A DNA stretch of 15,155 bases from a virus, in UHGV virus genome UHGV-0151496. One strand, written 5' to 3'. The notes beneath the pieces were generated by a model, which did not search any database, had not been told where the DNA came from, and saw only the letters and a list, made by a program, of their open reading frames with translations. The translations under genes and the position numbers were made by a program. Position 1 is the first letter of the stretch, and each line of letters opens with the position of its first letter. Positions 3,193-15,155 of the stretch are shown in pieces.

Positions 3193-3302
3193 GTATATTT
3201 ATATCCTGGCTTGCCCTGGTTATTTCGGTGTTCTGCGCCATTGGCATTGTGCGAATTATCGATTCCTTGAAAAAGATTGAACGCTTTTTCACTGGCGAAT
3301 AA
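3189..3302 (+). CDS. Candidate 37-aa hydrophobic micro-protein (MSIFISWLALVISVFCAIGIVRIIDSLKKIERFFTGE)
   Basis: Absent from the ORF track (below its length cut-off). ATG overlaps the upstream stop as ATGA; one predicted transmembrane helix followed by a short charged tail. My own translation of the sequence. Confidence 0.4.
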   Translation: MSIFISWLALVISVFCAIGIVRIIDSLKKIERFFTGE

Positions 3303-3394
3303 CAGCACGAATAAAACACCACATTAATTCCGAAAACCTGAAAACAATCCACATTCGCGGAGGGTTTCTCATATTTAAACAGCGGAGAGCGTAA

Positions 3395-5468: not shown

Positions 5469-5858
5469 ATGATTGACCGTCACGACTTCGTAAAATGGGT
5501 GCGCACACAGGACACCCGTCTGGCCCCAAAACTTCAGGCAATGTTTGATTTTTATCTCCGTGCCCGTGCCAGCCGGGCACGCACCACAAAACCGGAGAAC
5601 GCAGACACCCTTTATTTCACCGTGGACGACTGTTACCGCGTGGCCTTTACACCACAAGGTCTGGGCCTGTACACCCTGACACCACACGGCGACTCCCTGT
5701 TGGCGTATTACGACTCCCCGGCCTCCGTATTTGCGGCAATGCTGGCGCATCGTACCGCTGGCGGGTGTGCATCGCTGAGTGAATACACCGCTGAATTTAA
5801 CCGCCTTTCCGTCATCTTTTCGCAGGAGTGGCAGAGCGTGACGGGATACCAGCCATGA
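5469..5858 (+). CDS. Hypothetical protein immediately upstream of the replication gene
   Basis: 129-aa ORF; its TGA overlaps the gpA ATG (ATGA at 5855-5858). Confidence 0.55.
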   Translation: MIDRHDFVKWVRTQDTRLAPKLQAMFDFYLRARASRARTTKPENADTLYFTVDDCYRVAFTPQGLGLYTLTPHGDSLLAYYDSPASVFAAMLAHRTAGGCASLSEYTAEFNRLSVIFSQEWQSVTGYQP

Positions 5859-8771: not shown

Positions 8772-9731
8772 ATGAAAATTTGTATCGACGACGGCTCCAC
8801 CAACATCAAGCTGGCATGGACTGAGAACGGCGAACGCCGCAACGCCATCAGCCCGAACAGCTTCAAGTCGGAATGGTCTGCGCCGTTCGGCGGCTCGCAG
8901 CCCGCGAACTACATGCTTGATGGCGTGCGCTATGGTTTTGATCCGGTCAGCGATCGCTTTGTCCGGACGACCGACACGCAATACCAGTACAGCGATGTGA
9001 ATGTCATTGCCATTCATCATGCGCTGGTCAAATCAGGTATTACGCCACAGGAAGTGGATGTGGTTGTCACCCTGCCACTGAGCGAGTATTTCGACACAAA
9101 CGCACAGCCGGATATGACCAACATCAACCGCAAAAAAGCGAACGTCATGCGCCCGGTGGAGTACCAGAACGGTGAGGCATTCACTATCCGTAACGTGCGG
9201 GTTATGCCTGAATCCATTCCGGCAGGCTTTAAGGCACTGGCTGACATGAGTCCGTTTGAATCCCTGCTGATTGTGGATTTGGGCGGTACCACGCTGGATG
9301 TGGCAAAGGTTCAGGGGCAACTGGCAGGTATCAGCCAGGTATTTTGCGATCCACACGTAGGCGTTTCACTGATGACCGATGCCGTGCTGTCGGTGATGGC
9401 CACCAACGGTATGCGTACCAGCCACCACATCGCCAGTACCATTATCGAACATCGCCACGATGAAGCCTGGCTGCGCCAGCACATCCACAATGACGCGCAT
9501 TACGCCAGCCTGATGGCGGTTATTCGTGAAAAGGAAGAAACACTGAAACAACGCGTGATCCGCGCACTGGCGGGCTTTTCGGGATACGGTCGGGTGATGA
9601 TTGTCGGTGGAGGGGCGGAGATTGTGGCTCCGGCGGTACATGACGCTTACGGCCTCAACGCAAACATTCACACAACACCGGAGCCACAGTTTGCCCTGGT
9701 TAATGGACTCCATGACATGAACAGGGAGTGA
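8772..9731 (+). CDS. parM: Actin-like plasmid segregation ATPase ParM/StbA
   Basis: N-terminus MKICIDDGSTNIKLAW, SPNSFKSEW, YSDVNVIAIHHAL, VMPESIPAGF, LIVDLGGTTLDV, VMIVGGGAEI and C-terminal ALVNGL closely resemble plasmid R1/R100 ParM (StbA) as I recall it. AAGGAA precedes the ATG. Confidence 0.9.
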   Translation: MKICIDDGSTNIKLAWTENGERRNAISPNSFKSEWSAPFGGSQPANYMLDGVRYGFDPVSDRFVRTTDTQYQYSDVNVIAIHHALVKSGITPQEVDVVVTLPLSEYFDTNAQPDMTNINRKKANVMRPVEYQNGEAFTIRNVRVMPESIPAGFKALADMSPFESLLIVDLGGTTLDVAKVQGQLAGISQVFCDPHVGVSLMTDAVLSVMATNGMRTSHHIASTIIEHRHDEAWLRQHIHNDAHYASLMAVIREKEETLKQRVIRALAGFSGYGRVMIVGGGAEIVAPAVHDAYGLNANIHTTPEPQFALVNGLHDMNRE

Positions 9732-9735
9732 ACCA

Positions 9736-10047
9736 ATGACAACATCAACCAGGCGGATAAGTTTCTATCTGAAGCCAGCCGCAGTCAAGAACGAAGGTGA
9801 AGCATGCACATGGCTGGACAGCCTTACACCAGAAGCCCGCAAAAGCGGCCAACGCGTGGCTTTTCTGGCCGGGCTGGCGCTTCTGAAGACGAATCCGGCA
9901 GAGGCTTACCGGCTGGCTGCATGGGCTGACGATGAGGCGTTATCCGTGACACAAACCAGGACAGAACGCCCCGTGTCACAGCCAGTACCAACCGCACAGA
10001 TAACCAGTCAGATGGCCGGAAATATCCGGGCGCTATTTCCTGAGTAA
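9736..10047 (+). CDS. parR: ParR/StbB-like centromere-binding adaptor
   Basis: 103 aa directly downstream of parM (4-nt gap, GGGAG upstream). N-terminal RRISFYLKP...LDSLTPEARKSGQRVAFLAGLAL resembles the ribbon-helix-helix region of R1 ParR. Confidence 0.7.
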   Translation: MTTSTRRISFYLKPAAVKNEGEACTWLDSLTPEARKSGQRVAFLAGLALLKTNPAEAYRLAAWADDEALSVTQTRTERPVSQPVPTAQITSQMAGNIRALFPE

Positions 10048-10228: not shown

Positions 10229-11374
10229 ATGAACATTCAACAGCGTATAGCAGAACGCTTGGTTCAGGCCAGAAACGACGCGGGAATGAGTGCAAGCGCC
10301 GTCGCAGATGCGATCGGTGTTGTTCGTCAAACCTACAGTAAGTTTGAGCAGGCGCTAGGCGTCCCAAGCGTTACCCAACTCATCATGCTCTGCAAGATTT
10401 TCGATAAGCCTATCGGGTATTTTTATGAGCAAGATGATGGCGAGTTCCGTTTTGCAATGCGAGCAGATAGTCCGGATTTGTTGGATGCTAAACTTCGCAA
10501 TGAGTTGATTGAAAAGTTAAAAAATATCAATGCAATTGAGGAAGCTGCTGATGCTAATTTGCCAGAAGATCTTCCTAACTCAATGCCTATTTTTACCGCC
10601 AAAGCAGAAGATTTGCGAAGAGTCGAAGATAAGGCTATGGAAGAACGTTTCCGTCTTGGTATAGGAAACGCTACTTGCGTTGGTGACATTGTAGCCATTT
10701 TGGAAGCATCGGATATTCGAGTAATCCCGTTCAATCGCGAAGAAACCGATAAAGGGATGGTATTCGGATTTTCTGCGTTTTCGAACAAATACGGTACCGC
10801 GATTTATGTAAATGTTCACGACAGCATTTCAATAGAACGTCAAATCTTCAGTATTTGCCATGAATATGCTCATCTTATCTTCCACCGTGATGAGTATGAT
10901 GGCCCTGCTAAAAGCTATAAAACTAATGGCAAAGCAATTTCACCGGAAGAAAAAGTTGCTAATCACTTTGCTGCTTGTTTTTTGGTACCAGAAAGTGCAT
11001 TGCGAAAACAATTCGTCATGCAAGGTGGTGGATGGGCGTATGAGGAAACCGTCCTTAGACTAAAAAGCATTTTCAGAGTATCAGCCACTTGCATCATCGA
11101 TCGTCTTAGTAAATGTAATTTAATTAATCAACAAAACACTAGATACCTATGGGCAACCGCCAATCGTAAAGGTTGGAAGAGACACGAGCCAAATCCCATT
11201 AGGGAAGCACTAAATTATAAAGGTCGCCTAACCGTCTTATCGCGTAAAGCATGGGAAGCCGGTTCCGCGTCGGAAACCTTCATATCTGAACTTTTAGAAT
11301 TAGACAGAAAAGCTCTCAGCAATCTTCTGGATGAATGGTACGACGAACAGGAGGCCGGAGAGGATGCCGTTTGA
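10229..11374 (+). CDS. Fused XRE-family HTH + ImmA/IrrE (COG2856/DUF955-type) zinc metallopeptidase
   Basis: N-terminal HTH (SASAVADAIGVVRQTYSKFEQALGVPSVTQL) and central HExxH motif (SICHEYAHLIFH) in the context typical of ImmA/IrrE peptidases. 381 aa, AT-rich codon usage unlike neighbouring phage genes. Confidence 0.8.
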   Translation: MNIQQRIAERLVQARNDAGMSASAVADAIGVVRQTYSKFEQALGVPSVTQLIMLCKIFDKPIGYFYEQDDGEFRFAMRADSPDLLDAKLRNELIEKLKNINAIEEAADANLPEDLPNSMPIFTAKAEDLRRVEDKAMEERFRLGIGNATCVGDIVAILEASDIRVIPFNREETDKGMVFGFSAFSNKYGTAIYVNVHDSISIERQIFSICHEYAHLIFHRDEYDGPAKSYKTNGKAISPEEKVANHFAACFLVPESALRKQFVMQGGGWAYEETVLRLKSIFRVSATCIIDRLSKCNLINQQNTRYLWATANRKGWKRHEPNPIREALNYKGRLTVLSRKAWEAGSASETFISELLELDRKALSNLLDEWYDEQEAGEDAV

Positions 11375-11882
11375 ATGCCCCAGATGTGTTATCGATACGA
11401 ATGTACTGTCTGATTTTTACGAAGGTAAATGCTTAGATCTTATCTGGCAAATTTACCCGGGTGGTGTGTGGATTGACCCCTATGTCTGCGAGGAACTAAA
11501 AGCTAAATACAATCTTGATGTTCAGGAACAGCTTACACGCCTGCAACTTCCATACAATTTCACCAATGATTACGAACCTGAACATTTTATTGAAATGGCT
11601 GAGATAAAAAATCGCAGGAGAGCATTGAAGTATGCGGACATAAGCTGCGTTGTTAACGCGAGAATACATGATGCAACATGTCTTTCGGCGGATAATGCGG
11701 TTTATAAAACGTGTGCGGAACGCGGTGTAAAAGCCGCCCGCCACGGAGGGCTACTCCAAGAGGCTGTGCGCAGGAGACTTATCCACAAACATCAAGCCTT
11801 AATGCATTTCCAATTTTTCCTAGATCGTGGGTTAACGATGAAATCTTCTGTTCGAGAACAGATTCTTGCCAGTTTCGAATGA
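11364..11882 (+). CDS. PIN-domain-like nuclease (VapC-like fold), candidate toxin/effector
   Basis: ATG at 11364 with AGGAGG 9 nt upstream (ORF track's 11331 start lacks an SD). VIDTNVLSDF near the N-terminus (PIN strand-1 Asp), acidic residue in VCEELK, then DISCVVNARIHDATCLSADNAVY resembling the PIN D..IAA.A / T.D motifs. Start lies 10 nt upstream of the peptidase stop. Confidence 0.6.
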   Translation: MPFECPRCVIDTNVLSDFYEGKCLDLIWQIYPGGVWIDPYVCEELKAKYNLDVQEQLTRLQLPYNFTNDYEPEHFIEMAEIKNRRRALKYADISCVVNARIHDATCLSADNAVYKTCAERGVKAARHGGLLQEAVRRRLIHKHQALMHFQFFLDRGLTMKSSVREQILASFE

Positions 11883-11915: not shown

Positions 11916-11941
11916 GAGCCGCAATAGCGGCTCTTTTTTTT
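11916..11941 (+). terminator. Rho-independent terminator of the cargo operon
   Basis: gagccgc-aata-gcggctc followed by 8 T (11934-11941), 34 nt after the PIN stop. Confidence 0.8.
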
Positions 11942-11956
11942 GTTTATTTATAACAA

Positions 11957-11992
11957 GTGCGCAATGCACAATAGTGCGCAAATTTGCACAAT
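11957..11992. repeat. Tandem direct repeat GTGCGCAA(T)n TGCACAAT x2
   Basis: gtgcgcaatgcacaata / gtgcgcaaatttgcacaat read directly. TGCACAA recurs at 12056-12062 beside the palindrome aaaaacgcgttttt (12064-12077). Confidence 0.5.
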
Positions 11993-12313
11993 TTTTTTGA
12001 GCGACTTTTTGCCCTTCTGGCCCGCGTGGCGGCTGGATCCGTCAAGGATCCGTGCATGCACAAAAAAACGCGTTTTTGTTGCGCGCAGGTGCCGGGGGAA
12101 CAGCCCGCAATTTGGGGTCTGAAAGCATCCTCAGAAATCGCCAGAAATGCTGCTGATTGTGCCCCTGACGCGATGTTTTATTGGTTGTGTGGTGAAGTAT
12201 GGGCTGATGCATCACATGCCTGTGATGCACTTTGATGCGACGTGTGCTGACAGGTTATTCAACCTGGTAGATCCCTGAGATGCCTGGTGCGTGACACACC
12301 GGAGCTGGTGAGT

Positions 12314-12337
12314 CGGGGCATAAATTTTTATGCCCCG
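12314..12337. repeat. Inverted repeat cggggcataaa-tt-tttatgccccg just downstream of the portal gene stop
   Basis: 11-bp arms read directly; could be the minus-strand transcription terminator of the P-Q operon and/or part of the packaging (cos) region. Confidence 0.5.
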
Positions 12338-12363
12338 GAGAAGCAGCAGACAAGCGAAGCGCG

Positions 12364-13413
12364 TCAGGATGTGGGCGGGGTATCCAGCAGTGCGTAAGGG
12401 TTAAAGCGGATCACCTCCTCGCCCAGCCAGTCATTAACGTGCTTCATCGCCTCCATCACCGGCATCAGTTCGTTGATCGCAAACACTCTGGCCGCCTTCT
12501 CCACATCACCAAAAGAACCCTGCCCGCTGGGCATTGCGCCCATCAGTTGTGGTGGTACACGGTGAGCGGCCAGCACATCATCACGGGAGGCCGCCTTGAC
12601 GTTCATGAACTCATCCCGGGCGGTGATCTGCTGGAATGGCAGGATTTGCACACCGTCCTTCCCGCCGTTCGGTGCCTGGAGTAGCAGGTTCTTGAATGCC
12701 CCACCGCCTCTTGCGCCCTGCAACGCTCTTTCGAGAGCCTGCATACTTTCGCGATCAACCTGTGCTGCCCCCACGTAAATGATGCAGCCTGCATGTGAAC
12801 CGTTGTCATAGTAGAGTTTGCGGAAGCGATCTGCCGAGTGCGACAGACTGGCAGACAACAGGCCACCGAGATATTCCGGCATTCCGTACATCTCCTGGTT
12901 GATGTCGGGGTTCAGCACATGGCAGACGCGCCCCTGACGGAACTCGTGATCCTGCTCCCCCGTCTGCACAAACCAGTACACATCCGGTTCAACACCACGA
13001 CGGACGTATTTTGCCAGGGCATGGCGCAGTTCCAGTTTTCCGCCCAGCCTGTTGGTGCGCAGTTCAAGAAACGCATTCCCGAAGACAAACCAGTCCAGCG
13101 CAAAGGCGGAGAACGCCTGCCGGGACAACAGCCGGTGCGGAATGAAGCAGCCCAGTATGGCATTCCGCTTGAAGTACAGCGCCGACTGGTGCCACGAGGT
13201 CTGCCGGGATGCCCGCGCCAGTCCGTACCAGTCAACGGGCGTTTCGTAGTATCTGCCGTTACTCAGACAGTATGCGTTATCCAGCAGGTCGAGTGCGTGC
13301 GCATCGTAAGGGCCGTCGAACGAGAAGGCGCTTAACGACGGCTGGCGGCGCAGTGCCTCTGCCAGCGCCACGCCGTCATCGCGGCGCGAATATTTTCGTT
13401 TTTGTTTTTTCAT
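12364..13413 (-). CDS. Q: Phage portal (capsid portal vertex) protein, P2 gpQ-like
   Basis: 349 aa, immediately downstream of and overlapping (ATGA) the terminase ATPase gene on the minus strand; size and position match P2 gene Q. Family assignment by position and general resemblance, not by a search. Confidence 0.8.
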   Translation of the reverse strand: MKKQKRKYSRRDDGVALAEALRRQPSLSAFSFDGPYDAHALDLLDNAYCLSNGRYYETPVDWYGLARASRQTSWHQSALYFKRNAILGCFIPHRLLSRQAFSAFALDWFVFGNAFLELRTNRLGGKLELRHALAKYVRRGVEPDVYWFVQTGEQDHEFRQGRVCHVLNPDINQEMYGMPEYLGGLLSASLSHSADRFRKLYYDNGSHAGCIIYVGAAQVDRESMQALERALQGARGGGAFKNLLLQAPNGGKDGVQILPFQQITARDEFMNVKAASRDDVLAAHRVPPQLMGAMPSGQGSFGDVEKAARVFAINELMPVMEAMKHVNDWLGEEVIRFNPYALLDTPPTS

Positions 13414-15155
13414 CAGAACTCAATCACCCGCATTCCTGTAGCACCGTCCTCCTCACCCAGCGGCTCGTTAATGACGGCAAGCATGGTTGCCCACGCGAGG
13501 TCGCCGTGGTTCACGCCGCGTGTGCGGTCTGTTTCATAAGTTATTGCCCCACCCGCCGTTTTTGCCTTGCGCACAGCGTTGAATGCCCTGACCAGCTCAC
13601 GTTCGCCCCGGTCATACTCCCAGCGCCCCGCACGAATAATCTGCAACATCTTCAGCACAAGCGCGCGTTTGGATGCCAGTGTGAACGTGTACGGCACGGC
13701 GGCAGGCCAGAACCGCCGCACTATCTGGTACACTGCCTCACCGTTACCGCCGGTCACGTCGATACCAATGTGCTGGACGTTGTATTTGTGCGTGAACTGC
13801 TCAATCACACGGGCCTGCTCTTCAAATTCCAGCCCCTGCACCTGTAACGTCTCCACCGTGCGGAATTTGCCGCCCCTGACAGCAGGCGGAACAACAACAG
13901 ACAGCGCCCCGCTGTCGCCGTTACCGCTGCTGCCGTTAGCGTCGTAGCCAATCCACACCGGACGATTACCCACCGGACGTGCTGCGAACGGTTTCCAGTC
14001 ATTCCACTCATCATAGCCGTCCACACCACAGCCCAGCAGGGCATTAAGGTCGAAGGCGGATTCGCCGTCGCTGACAAACTCGCACATGTAGAGATTGCGG
14101 AACTCATCCGGCGAGTTCATGTTGCGGATTTTGTCGATACTGGTGAGTGACCAGCCCAGGTCCACCGCATCCTGAATCGTCACGATTTGTCGCCACGCGC
14201 TGTCGGGGCACAGCCCCCCACTCTTCAGAGCATGATGGGACACATCAATCTCCCGGCGCTCACTGCGTGGTCGCCCGGCATTCCACCGCGCGCCGTTCCA
14301 GAACTGAAACGCCTCGTGCATCTCCGATGACGGCGTGGAAAAGTAGGTCTGCGTCAGGCCATTCAGCGTGGCCATCGCGCCTGCGACCTTGCGCAGCGTG
14401 ATGAAGTTCGACACCCAGAAAAATTCGTCAAAATACAGATTGCCCGTGTATGACTGTGCACTCGCGGCGGATGTCCCCAGAAAATGCAGTTCCGCGCCGT
14501 TAGAAAGCACGATTTTGTCACCGCCTTTCAGCTCGACGTCCACCGCCTGTGCCGCCTTCTGAATCACGCCTTTAAACTGAAAAGCCTGACGGCGCGAGGC
14601 TGACAAAAAAATCTGGTTTCGCTGGTACGGATATTTCACGCGCTCATCCAGCGCCCGCAGCAGTGCCTCCTGCGCAAAATACCAGGTCGCGCCTATCTGT
14701 CGGGATTTCACAATGATGCGAATATCAACACCGGCACGACGGCAGACGTCCAGTGCCTCATACCAGCGTCGCTGATGCTCTGCCAGTTGACCGGTGATGT
14801 GTTCGCGCAGTGCGGCAACCTGCGATTCGGAAAAATGGTTTTTCAGCTTTCGTTTTCGCGGGCTTTTTTCCGCGCCGCCCCTGTTGTCATTCAGTTTTGC
14901 GAGCTGGCGTGTCAGCAGGTCGATTTCCTTAAAATCACCGCCGCTCTTTTCAGCTTTTGAGGTCAGCTGAACCAGTCGCGCATCAATCGACTGCGTGACC
15001 CGCTCCACGGGCGGCGTCTCATCCCATCCGTCGCGCTTTTTCCACGAATAAATCGTGTTCTGACTGATACCCATCAGCCGCGATATTTCAGCGGGCGGAT
15101 AACCCTGCCAGTAAAGCTGTTTTGCCCGCAGCCTGATGAATGCGTCCTGAATCAT
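13413..15155 (-). CDS. P: Terminase large (ATPase) subunit, P2 gpP-like
   Basis: 580 aa. N-terminal HTH-like region (QGYPPAEISRLMGISQNTIYSWKKRDGWDE) typical of gpP-type terminases; Walker-A-like region (IVKSRQIGATWY). Start codon is the last 3 nt of the window, so an upstream start cannot be excluded. Confidence 0.85.
   Translation of the reverse strand: MIQDAFIRLRAKQLYWQGYPPAEISRLMGISQNTIYSWKKRDGWDETPPVERVTQSIDARLVQLTSKAEKSGGDFKEIDLLTRQLAKLNDNRGGAEKSPRKRKLKNHFSESQVAALREHITGQLAEHQRRWYEALDVCRRAGVDIRIIVKSRQIGATWYFAQEALLRALDERVKYPYQRNQIFLSASRRQAFQFKGVIQKAAQAVDVELKGGDKIVLSNGAELHFLGTSAASAQSYTGNLYFDEFFWVSNFITLRKVAGAMATLNGLTQTYFSTPSSEMHEAFQFWNGARWNAGRPRSERREIDVSHHALKSGGLCPDSAWRQIVTIQDAVDLGWSLTSIDKIRNMNSPDEFRNLYMCEFVSDGESAFDLNALLGCGVDGYDEWNDWKPFAARPVGNRPVWIGYDANGSSGNGDSGALSVVVPPAVRGGKFRTVETLQVQGLEFEEQARVIEQFTHKYNVQHIGIDVTGGNGEAVYQIVRRFWPAAVPYTFTLASKRALVLKMLQIIRAGRWEYDRGERELVRAFNAVRKAKTAGGAITYETDRTRGVNHGDLAWATMLAVINEPLGEEDGATGMRVIEF

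Follow-up and report, generated by a model that had tools for sequence, protein, structure and literature searches.

The DNA analysed here is a 15,155-nt stretch of the virus genome UHGV-0151496 (the whole stretch is hereafter called the window), and the element in question is a repeat-rich non-coding gap towards its right end. The closest phage records in BLAST searches are P88, P88_4B11, Shae_phiSM, Chuche, PhiR44_2, and 520873, and they place the window among P88-like (Xuanwuvirus, Peduoviridae) prophages of the P2 family. Its gene order is replication gene, ParMR, defence-like cargo, the gap, portal gene, and terminase large subunit gene. The gap extends from the stop codon of the cargo operon (open reading frames [ORFs] 10229–11374 and 11331–11882, plus strand) to that of the portal gene (12364–13413, minus strand), which encodes a gpQ homologue (Pfam PF04860; annotations of relatives). 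Next to the portal gene lies the gene for the terminase large subunit, a gpP homologue (13413–15155, minus strand), the 5′ part of which falls past the window end. This protein shares 48% identity over 578 aa with P2 gpP, and in a same-lineage prophage gpM and gpN are 33% and 41% identical to their P2 counterparts; the packaging proteins thus compared are homologous to those of P2 yet diverged. The gap occupies the P2-family map position of the cohesive-end (cos) site, with portal and terminase genes transcribed away from it as in the P2 and 186 annotations, and cutting there would be expected of the terminase large subunit. Positions 11965 to about 12128 are very probably the cos packaging site of this P88-like phage, diverged in sequence and conserved in layout. 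A cos site at this place is expected and ordinary for a P2-like prophage, and it represents no new kind of element.

All of the repeats listed in the original prediction, which was made from the sequence alone, were recovered by repeat search and direct reading, at most 1 nt from where they had been placed. TGCACAA-type units (TGCRCAA) are found at 11958–11964, 11965–11971, 11975–11981, and 11985–11991, with a fifth copy at 12057–12063. The motif is not enriched window-wide (14 copies seen vs. 9.7 expected); five of the 14 are packed into 106 bp. The direct repeat GGATCCGT occurs at 12035–12042 and 12046–12053, 1 nt from its earlier coordinates and, GGATCC being palindromic, the pair also forms a dyad. 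The palindrome AAAAACG/CGTTTTT lies at 12064–12077, the inverted pair TGCATCACA/TGTGATGCA at 12208–12216 and 12221–12229, and a perfect inverted repeat with 11-nt arms at 12314–12324 and 12327–12337.

Conservation separates these repeats into distinct groups. When nine relatives with unrelated cargo were aligned, their homology to the window was seen to set in precisely with the first TGCACAA, at 11965. To the left lies the intrinsic terminator of the cargo operon (11916–11941, plus strand; stem GAGCCGC/GCGGCTC followed by T8; terminator scan), outside the conserved block; relatives have unrelated sequence there, each with its own terminator. The right limit of homology falls at about 12110–12128, after which the sequence is lineage-specific until about 12298, where a second conserved piece begins; it takes in the 12314–12337 hairpin together with the 3′ end of the portal gene. 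The cos block is present in 1140 of 5426 complete Escherichia coli genomes. In an IMG/VR sample for which an 18-mer served as the search pattern (120 loci, reduced to about 105 distinct versions), the three TGCACAA units, the T-tract, and TGCACAAAAAA are conserved outside that pattern. What is kept across these versions is the set of TGCACAA copies together with the A-tract and G-rich core; distant relatives conserve neither the GGATCC dyad nor the T-half of the AAAAACGCGTTTTT palindrome.

From left to right on the plus strand, and counting from the first nucleotide of the G-rich core, the block is organized as follows. Just outside the homology boundary, at −130, is an extra TGCGCAA (11958–11964) that is specific to the window and missing even from strain 2-1, which has the same cos lineage. 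The distal triple TGCACAA/TGCGCAA/TGCACAA (11965–11991) shows exact 10-bp phasing at −123/−113/−103; it is retained in the satellites L014 and L047 (see below) and is proposed to be the terminase recognition array and the left edge of cos. A T7 tract with a GC-rich spacer (GCCCTTCTGGCCCGCGTGGCGGC; 11992–12034) is partly conserved, and the T-tract and CCCTT recur in the Enterobacter phage phiT5282H. The dyad GGATCC-n5-GGATCC (12035–12053) is conserved within Xuanwuvirus; in phiT5282H, the satellites, and P4/186 it is replaced by other GC-rich sequences, some of them dyad-like by eye, and it is possibly a bend or spacer element. Next comes a proximal doublet, TGCAT-TGCAC at −35/−31, followed by an A7 tract (12053–12069). 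Judged by alignment, this doublet appears to be the counterpart of TGCAAC-TGCATTAAAA in P4/186/PSP3 and of TGCATTAAAA in P2, the start of the 55-bp cos core. Its TGC and AAA are invariant in nine aligned sequences, and in the distant prophage L013 it is the only part besides the core that is kept, at 88% identity. The left core flank (12070–12087) ends in GCGCGCA directly before the predicted top-strand nick; this motif is conserved in most relatives and reads GTGCGCA in phiT5282H. The predicted cosN core, or cohesive-end sequence, is GGTGCCGGGGGAACAGCCC (12088–12106), with a register uncertain by about ±3 nt. The right flank (12107–12128), the right edge of the DNA shared with the satellite, is weakly conserved, with GCAATTTGGGGTCTGAAAG in the window vs. 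GCGTTTCAGGGGGTAAATAG in most relatives. As a side observation, the IMG/VR prophages L078 (about 3230–3320) and L283 (about 5530–5620) have a cos block shortened by about 72 bp, its proximal TGCACAAAAAA joined directly to the second distal TGCACAA, an apparent product of recombination between repeats.

The layout of these repeats can be compared with cos sites whose ends have been mapped. The cos sites of P2, 186, and P4 are described as having a 55-bp core and 19-nt 5′ cohesive ends (Ziermann and Calendar, 1990, as cited in PMC3931495 and PMC5694545), and the P2-family core follows the pattern proximal TGCATTAAAA, flank, 19-mer, GCGCGC. Cohesive ends are annotated for P2 and 186, and the P4 record begins with the 19-mer of P2; circular junctions were rebuilt for all three. 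For PSP3, RSA1, and phiCTX, the right end of each record was used. Motif positions were counted from the 5′ end of the 19-mer, or of the annotated 21-nt end in phiCTX, with the GGTG at 12088 taken as position 1 in the window. TGCA motifs of P2 lie at −123, −111, and −101 (distal) and −29 (proximal). P4 and 186 have them at −124, −111, and −101 with −35 and −29; PSP3 at −120, −111, and −101 with −35 and −29; and RSA1 at −129, −110, and −100 with −35 and −29. In the window, P88, phiT5282H, and satellite L014, the distal motifs are at −123, −113, and −103 and the proximal one is at −31, joined by a copy at −35 in all but phiT5282H. The positions agree to within 2–3 nt with the spacing derived here from P2, P4, 186, PSP3, and RSA1. 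A search for TGCR at −123/−112/−102/−30 (each ±2) returned one window site, with anchors 12086–12089 on the plus strand, and a site in 1 of 100 shuffles. In phiCTX, YGCAGR repeats take the place of TGCA, at −109, −99, and −83 (distal) and −37 and −28 (proximal), so that between genera the repeat sequence differs and the layout remains similar. The phiCTX record (NC_003278, 35300–35580; L141) itself annotates repeats R3–R6 spanning cos.

The original prediction had expected cos in this gap, perhaps in diverged form, and had reported no recognizable P2-type 19-mer. The second statement stands as far as a direct match is concerned: the P2 sequence GGCGAGGCGGGGAAAGCAC has no match at ≤3 mismatches anywhere in the window. 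It falls short in that a homologous G-rich core at 12088–12106 becomes visible through intermediates and flanks. The core GGTGCCGGGGGAACAGCCC matches the P2 19-mer at 12 of 19 positions, the best score in the intergenic region; the identity scans, run with four known cos 19-mers, are not discriminating alone. The P88-type core (GGTGAC...) reaches 13/19, and the core of the distant E. coli prophage L013, GGTGACGGGGGGAAAGCCC, reaches 15/19. These intermediates support homology of the window core with that of P2, as does a gapped MAFFT alignment, which sets the window core on the P2 19-mer and has 20 invariant columns in nine sequences. With a scoring matrix derived from the 66-bp cores of P2, P4, and 186 alone, 12088 comes second among 30,180 positions (z about 4). 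Ungapped identity to P2, P4, and 186 is 44–47% in the 55-bp-core comparison; from −40 to +26 it is 44–50% for the window and P88 and 39–52% for all P88-type sequences. The reading of a cos that lies here in diverged form is supported by map position, by conservation independent of cargo, by a repeat geometry like that of P2/186/P4, and by a block common to a satellite.

The proximal repeat and the core form the best-kept segment across phages of Escherichia, Citrobacter, Enterobacter, and Klebsiella, and genomes of Pantoea, Mixta, Kosakonia, Erwinia, Symbiopectobacterium, Izhakiella, and Salmonella carry the same signature. Other cos sites of the P2 family show that GGTGA... starts and GGGGGAAC cores are tolerated; published examples are the cos of Ralstonia phage phiRSA1, GGTGAGGCGGGGTCCAAC, reported to have been determined on virion DNA, and that of Salmonella SEN4/5, GGCGAGGCGGGGGAACGAG (PMC5694545; PMC5261728). 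A literature search found no paper on the cos of Xuanwuvirus or P88. Two other candidates for the core were set aside. A second 19-mer at 12023, with GCGTGGCGG as in 186, is conserved neither in satellites nor in P88. A reading in the inverted orientation, in which GCGCGCAG(G)TGC would resemble the P2 bottom strand, fails since the orientation is set by where the TGCA repeats lie with respect to the portal gene; the resemblance is noted as a symmetry of the flanks.

The block is also found outside P88-like prophages. A 77%-identical copy sits in an island of 12.5 kb that is flanked by gcd and hpt in E. coli OkiPb01677 (L014/L140; L140 3660–16116 = NZ_AP042483.1 141659–154115; also L047 and L153+L155). 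The island resembles a satellite: it encodes an integrase, an Icd-like protein, an 889-aa primase, a second integrase-family protein, an Ogr/Delta-like zinc-finger protein, a 236-aa protein of unassigned function, a MazEF pair, and a P2-family major capsid protein of 423 aa, the N-terminus of which is extended by about 120 aa. Portal, terminase, and tail genes are absent from it, and neither Psu nor Sid was detected among the proteins tested. This gene content suggests that the satellite would depend on the terminase of a helper. When 3.1 kb of the island (L140:12380–15480) was searched against the 5426 E. coli genomes, the cos-ogr-capsid module was found in 57, and about 400 others matched only query positions 97–265, i.e., the block of about 165 bp. 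Therefore, cos is the sole DNA common to the island and P88-like prophages, and P4 and P2 have the same cos-sharing relationship (PMC9122126). More distant members, L047 and QAKE01000006, keep the repeats, spacings, and core. The sequence of the satellite capsid was uninformative as to which phage is the helper (it is 36% identical to the P88-type capsid vs. 35% to that of P2). No description of this ~12-kb island was found in the papers on P4-like satellites that were consulted. Two observations on the satellites stand apart. The 12,723-bp contig QAKE01000006.1 (L153+L155) is an excised, circularly permuted satellite copy with a unit of 12,207 bp and a 507-bp terminal repeat; it is labelled as a Bacillota metagenome-assembled genome, is probably mis-binned, and may record a cos-cut end. 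In L014 (4500–4800), a dense GGTTACA/TGTAACC iteron-like array, probably a replication origin, lies between the second integrase-like gene and cos.

Clues to the physical DNA end come from three independent assemblies that are discontinuous at one bond, ...ACAG|CCC, corresponding to 12103|12104 (core positions 16|17) or its equivalent. The Chuche record (PP925824; L010, about 1390–1420) is missing the 7 nt of core positions 10–16 (alternatively 9–15), and P88_4B11 (LR595891; L002, 70–100) is missing the 5 nt of positions 17–21. The contig QAKE01000006 stops at ...GGGGGGACAG, followed by 9 nt that equal the start of the Nextera mosaic end, and its internal copy reads through normally. The deletions in Chuche and P88_4B11, which abut the same bond while more than 100 prophage copies are intact there, look like end-joining artefacts at genome termini. 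The shared break thus hints at a physical DNA end inside the core, 2–3 nt to the left of the boundary predicted from P2. Nick contexts in P2 are GCGGGCG|GGCG (top) and GCGCGCA|GTGC (bottom), and the window has GCGCGCA|GGTG before the core; the overhang could be 16 nt (12088–12103) or 19 nt (12085–12103 or 12088–12106). Metagenome contigs gave 22 true matches, all internal, in a search whose pattern spanned the 16|17 bond and was blind to contigs ending there. The start of the P88_4B11 record, equivalent to window position 12010, was rejected as a real end, its sequence being poorly conserved in satellites and distant phages.

Taken together, these features suggest how the site would operate. 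Homologues of gpP and gpM would recognize the phased TGCA-type array on the cargo side, i.e., three copies at 10-bp spacing about 100–125 bp upstream and the doublet with its A-tract about 30 bp upstream. The terminase would then make staggered nicks in GGTGCCGGGGGAACAGCCC (12088–12106), which would leave a 5′ cohesive end of about 16–19 nt; the left end of virion DNA would derive from the portal side. The exact nick positions can be predicted to ±3 nt, and the window copy, with A>C at core position 5, would presumably be active. That the terminase, not a host protein, reads the repeats is suggested by the flavour of the repeat, which pairs each satellite with one phage type, and by the divergence of gpM and gpP from P2.

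Several points weigh against this explanation. The 12/19 match is not significant alone, as 52 window sites score ≥12/19 against known cos 19-mers. The window core has C at position 5, where the other ~104 distinct IMG/VR variants have A, and the C5 variant is limited to a small lineage in which at least one carrier is a degraded prophage. The assembly breaks fall at 16|17, whereas ungapped homology predicts 19|20, so neither overhang length nor register is fixed. Chuche is described in its record as isolated on E. coli from an environmental sample, and if that record, which lacks 7 nt of the core, is correct, then either the core tolerates large changes or its assignment is off. Among the 120 IMG/VR loci, the metagenome contigs, and the phage database, no record or contig begins or ends at the core; the ends are predicted from sequence. 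Finally, the literature search found no demonstration of terminase binding to TGCA repeats. This last point also favours the view that the block is cos but that its TGCA repeats are recognized by an architectural protein of the host, or work only through DNA shape, as do a TGCA core that is constant from E. coli P2 to Ralstonia RSA1 and the A-tracts and T-tracts beside the repeats, which suggest bending. However, the flavour differs within one host, TGCAT in P2/186 vs. TGCACAA in P88-like phages, all of E. coli; phiCTX uses YGCAGR; and satellites match one phage type each (P4 with TGCAT; L014 and QAKE with TGCACAA), which fits a phage-encoded reader. A host reader is accordingly judged unlikely, though it is the strongest of the alternatives. 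Somewhat less likely still is a site that is cos by descent but now an inactive, decaying remnant, as the A>C change and the diverged right flank might indicate. The GGTGCC start is the one absent from the other variants, its lineage occurs in only 16 of 5426 genomes, and the prophage of strain H1827/12 is degraded (IS421, truncated terminase gene). Nevertheless, strain 2-1 has the same variant in a prophage that is nearly complete, bar an insertion sequence in the tail-fibre region, and in the window all repeats and spacings are intact, as is the portal ORF, and the terminase ORF is uninterrupted to the window end.

The remaining alternatives assign the repeats to neighbouring genes, and both are very improbable. 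The original prediction had allowed that the repeats might regulate the adjacent cargo, as operators or other regulatory sites of its operon; they lie just downstream of the cargo terminator, and the extra TGCGCAA at 11958–11964 is specific to the junction. This suggestion does not survive comparison, because the same repeats follow wholly different cargo in nine phages, with homology starting at the first repeat, and satellites without this cargo keep them; their position downstream of a terminator, with no promoter predicted, also argues against it. The TGCACAA repeats therefore belong to cos and not to the cargo. A similar verdict applies to a parC-like centromere of the ParM/ParR system. 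Phased short repeats are typical of centromeres, and ParM and a Plasmid_stab_B protein are encoded about 2 kb upstream, but the cargo and its terminator separate the array from parMR, so that it lies about 2 kb downstream instead of adjacent to and upstream of parM. Equivalent arrays also occur in satellites, P2, 186, and P4, with no ParMR in the regions examined.

The rest of the gap is distinct from the cos block that these comparisons favour. The original prediction had listed all of its repeats together at the expected packaging site; the 12208–12229 inverted repeat and the 12314–12337 hairpin lie outside cos. Positions 12129–12297 form a lineage-specific non-coding spacer that contains the inverted repeat as well as TGATGC repeats; only 16 of the 5426 E. 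coli genomes have this spacer, which is without a phage-database match, promoter, or credible ORF. Across the gap as a whole, no promoter was predicted, the ORFs overlap cos or are tiny, and Rfam returned only a chance sbrA match (E = 0.98). The spacer fills a second variable slot, between cos and the portal gene; other P2-like phages have inserted genes at this position (PMC5694545), as does PhiR44_2. The 12208–12229 inverted repeat lies in this variable spacer and has no support as part of cos. The same spacer and the GGTGCC core occur in the degraded prophage L139 (NZ_CP013031.1, strain H1827/12), with an IS421 insertion and a truncated terminase gene, and the same variant occurs in strain 2-1 (L144), with IS3 in the tail-fibre region of its nearly complete prophage. 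Positions 12298–12363 (minus strand) are a conserved 3′ untranslated segment of the portal/terminase operon with the 11-bp-stem hairpin 27 nt past the portal stop codon. Its predicted RNA fold on the portal-operon strand has an energy of −31.8 kcal/mol (z = −5.3), several other lineages have a GC-rich hairpin of different sequence after the portal stop, and its position is that of the annotated terminators tQ of P2 and tW of 186. The hairpin has no U-tract and was not called by the consensus terminator scan, so that "terminator-like" is the safe label for this element, which is separate from cos.

The genes on either side fit a P2-like arrangement. The cargo at 10229–11882 encodes a protein with a helix-turn-helix and an M78 peptidase domain (PADLOC RmrA, E = 3e-35), overlapping a PIN-domain protein; the two form a RosmerTA-like pair, of toxin-antitoxin or defence type, within the P2 hotspot beside cos. 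This identity agrees with the defence hotspot known between the replication gene and cos of P2-like phages (PMC9122126). ParM (8772–9731) and the ParR-like Plasmid_stab_B protein (9736–10047) directly follow the replication gene, as in other P88-like phages. At the other end, the N-terminus of the terminase large subunit (window about 14990–15130) is conserved with P2 gpP and looks helix-turn-helix-like by eye (window ...ISRLMGISQNTIYSWKKRDGWD, P2 ...IAAMLQMKRPTVQSWKQRDGWD); it could aid cos recognition.

Compared with known systems, the site resembles the cos of P2, 186, and P4 in its map position between the cargo hotspot and the portal gene, in a TGCA triple at about −123/−112/−102, a doublet with an A-tract at about −35/−30, a GCGSGCR flank, and a G-rich core, in the homology of the terminase and portal proteins, and in being common to a presumably dependent satellite. 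It differs in that the P88-type core matches only 12–13 of 19 positions, in the repeat unit (TGCACAA in P88-like phages vs. TGCAT), and in a possibly shorter or shifted cohesive end, as the breaks at core position 16 would suggest, the ends being predictions; relative to P2, the GCGCGCA flank is on the opposite side. Among other P2-family cos sites, that of RSA1 preserves the TGCAT layout, and that of phiCTX combines a similar layout with a repeat flavour of its own. RSA1, SEN4/5, Smp131, and phiCTX come from other genera and hosts, and none has the TGCACAA flavour or the GCGCGCAGGTGAC junction. In lambda cos (cosQ-cosN-cosB), bends and repeated elements that bind protein likewise flank the site of nicking, but the sequences and terminase small subunit of lambda are unrelated, and in the P2 family, unlike lambda, conservation is almost wholly on one side of the nick, the future right end of the genome.

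The identification of this site has practical and biological consequences. About one in five complete E. coli genomes has a P88-like prophage with the block, its cos directly adjoining the defence-gene hotspot, and knowing the real cos fixes the genome ends for annotation. The diverged core explains why searches with the P2 19-mer miss the cos of P88-like phages, and the TGCA-repeat triple, the doublet, and then GCGCGCAGGTGAC provide a compact signature of helper and satellite. Of greater interest are two by-products, a repeat geometry common to the family and a capsid-encoding satellite with the same cos flavour. TGCAT and TGCACAA form a natural specificity pair for DNA recognition by P2-type terminases, a question that no paper found resolves. 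More speculatively, and with slightly more doubt than confidence, P88-like phages may form a separate packaging-specificity group within the P2 family, in which repeat flavour and core are a code read by the terminase. The cohesive end of this group may be about 16 nt, to ...ACAG, shorter than the canonical 19 nt. Such a code would pair P88-like phages with their own, hitherto undescribed satellites of about 12 kb, which encode a P2-type major capsid protein instead of Psu/Sid.

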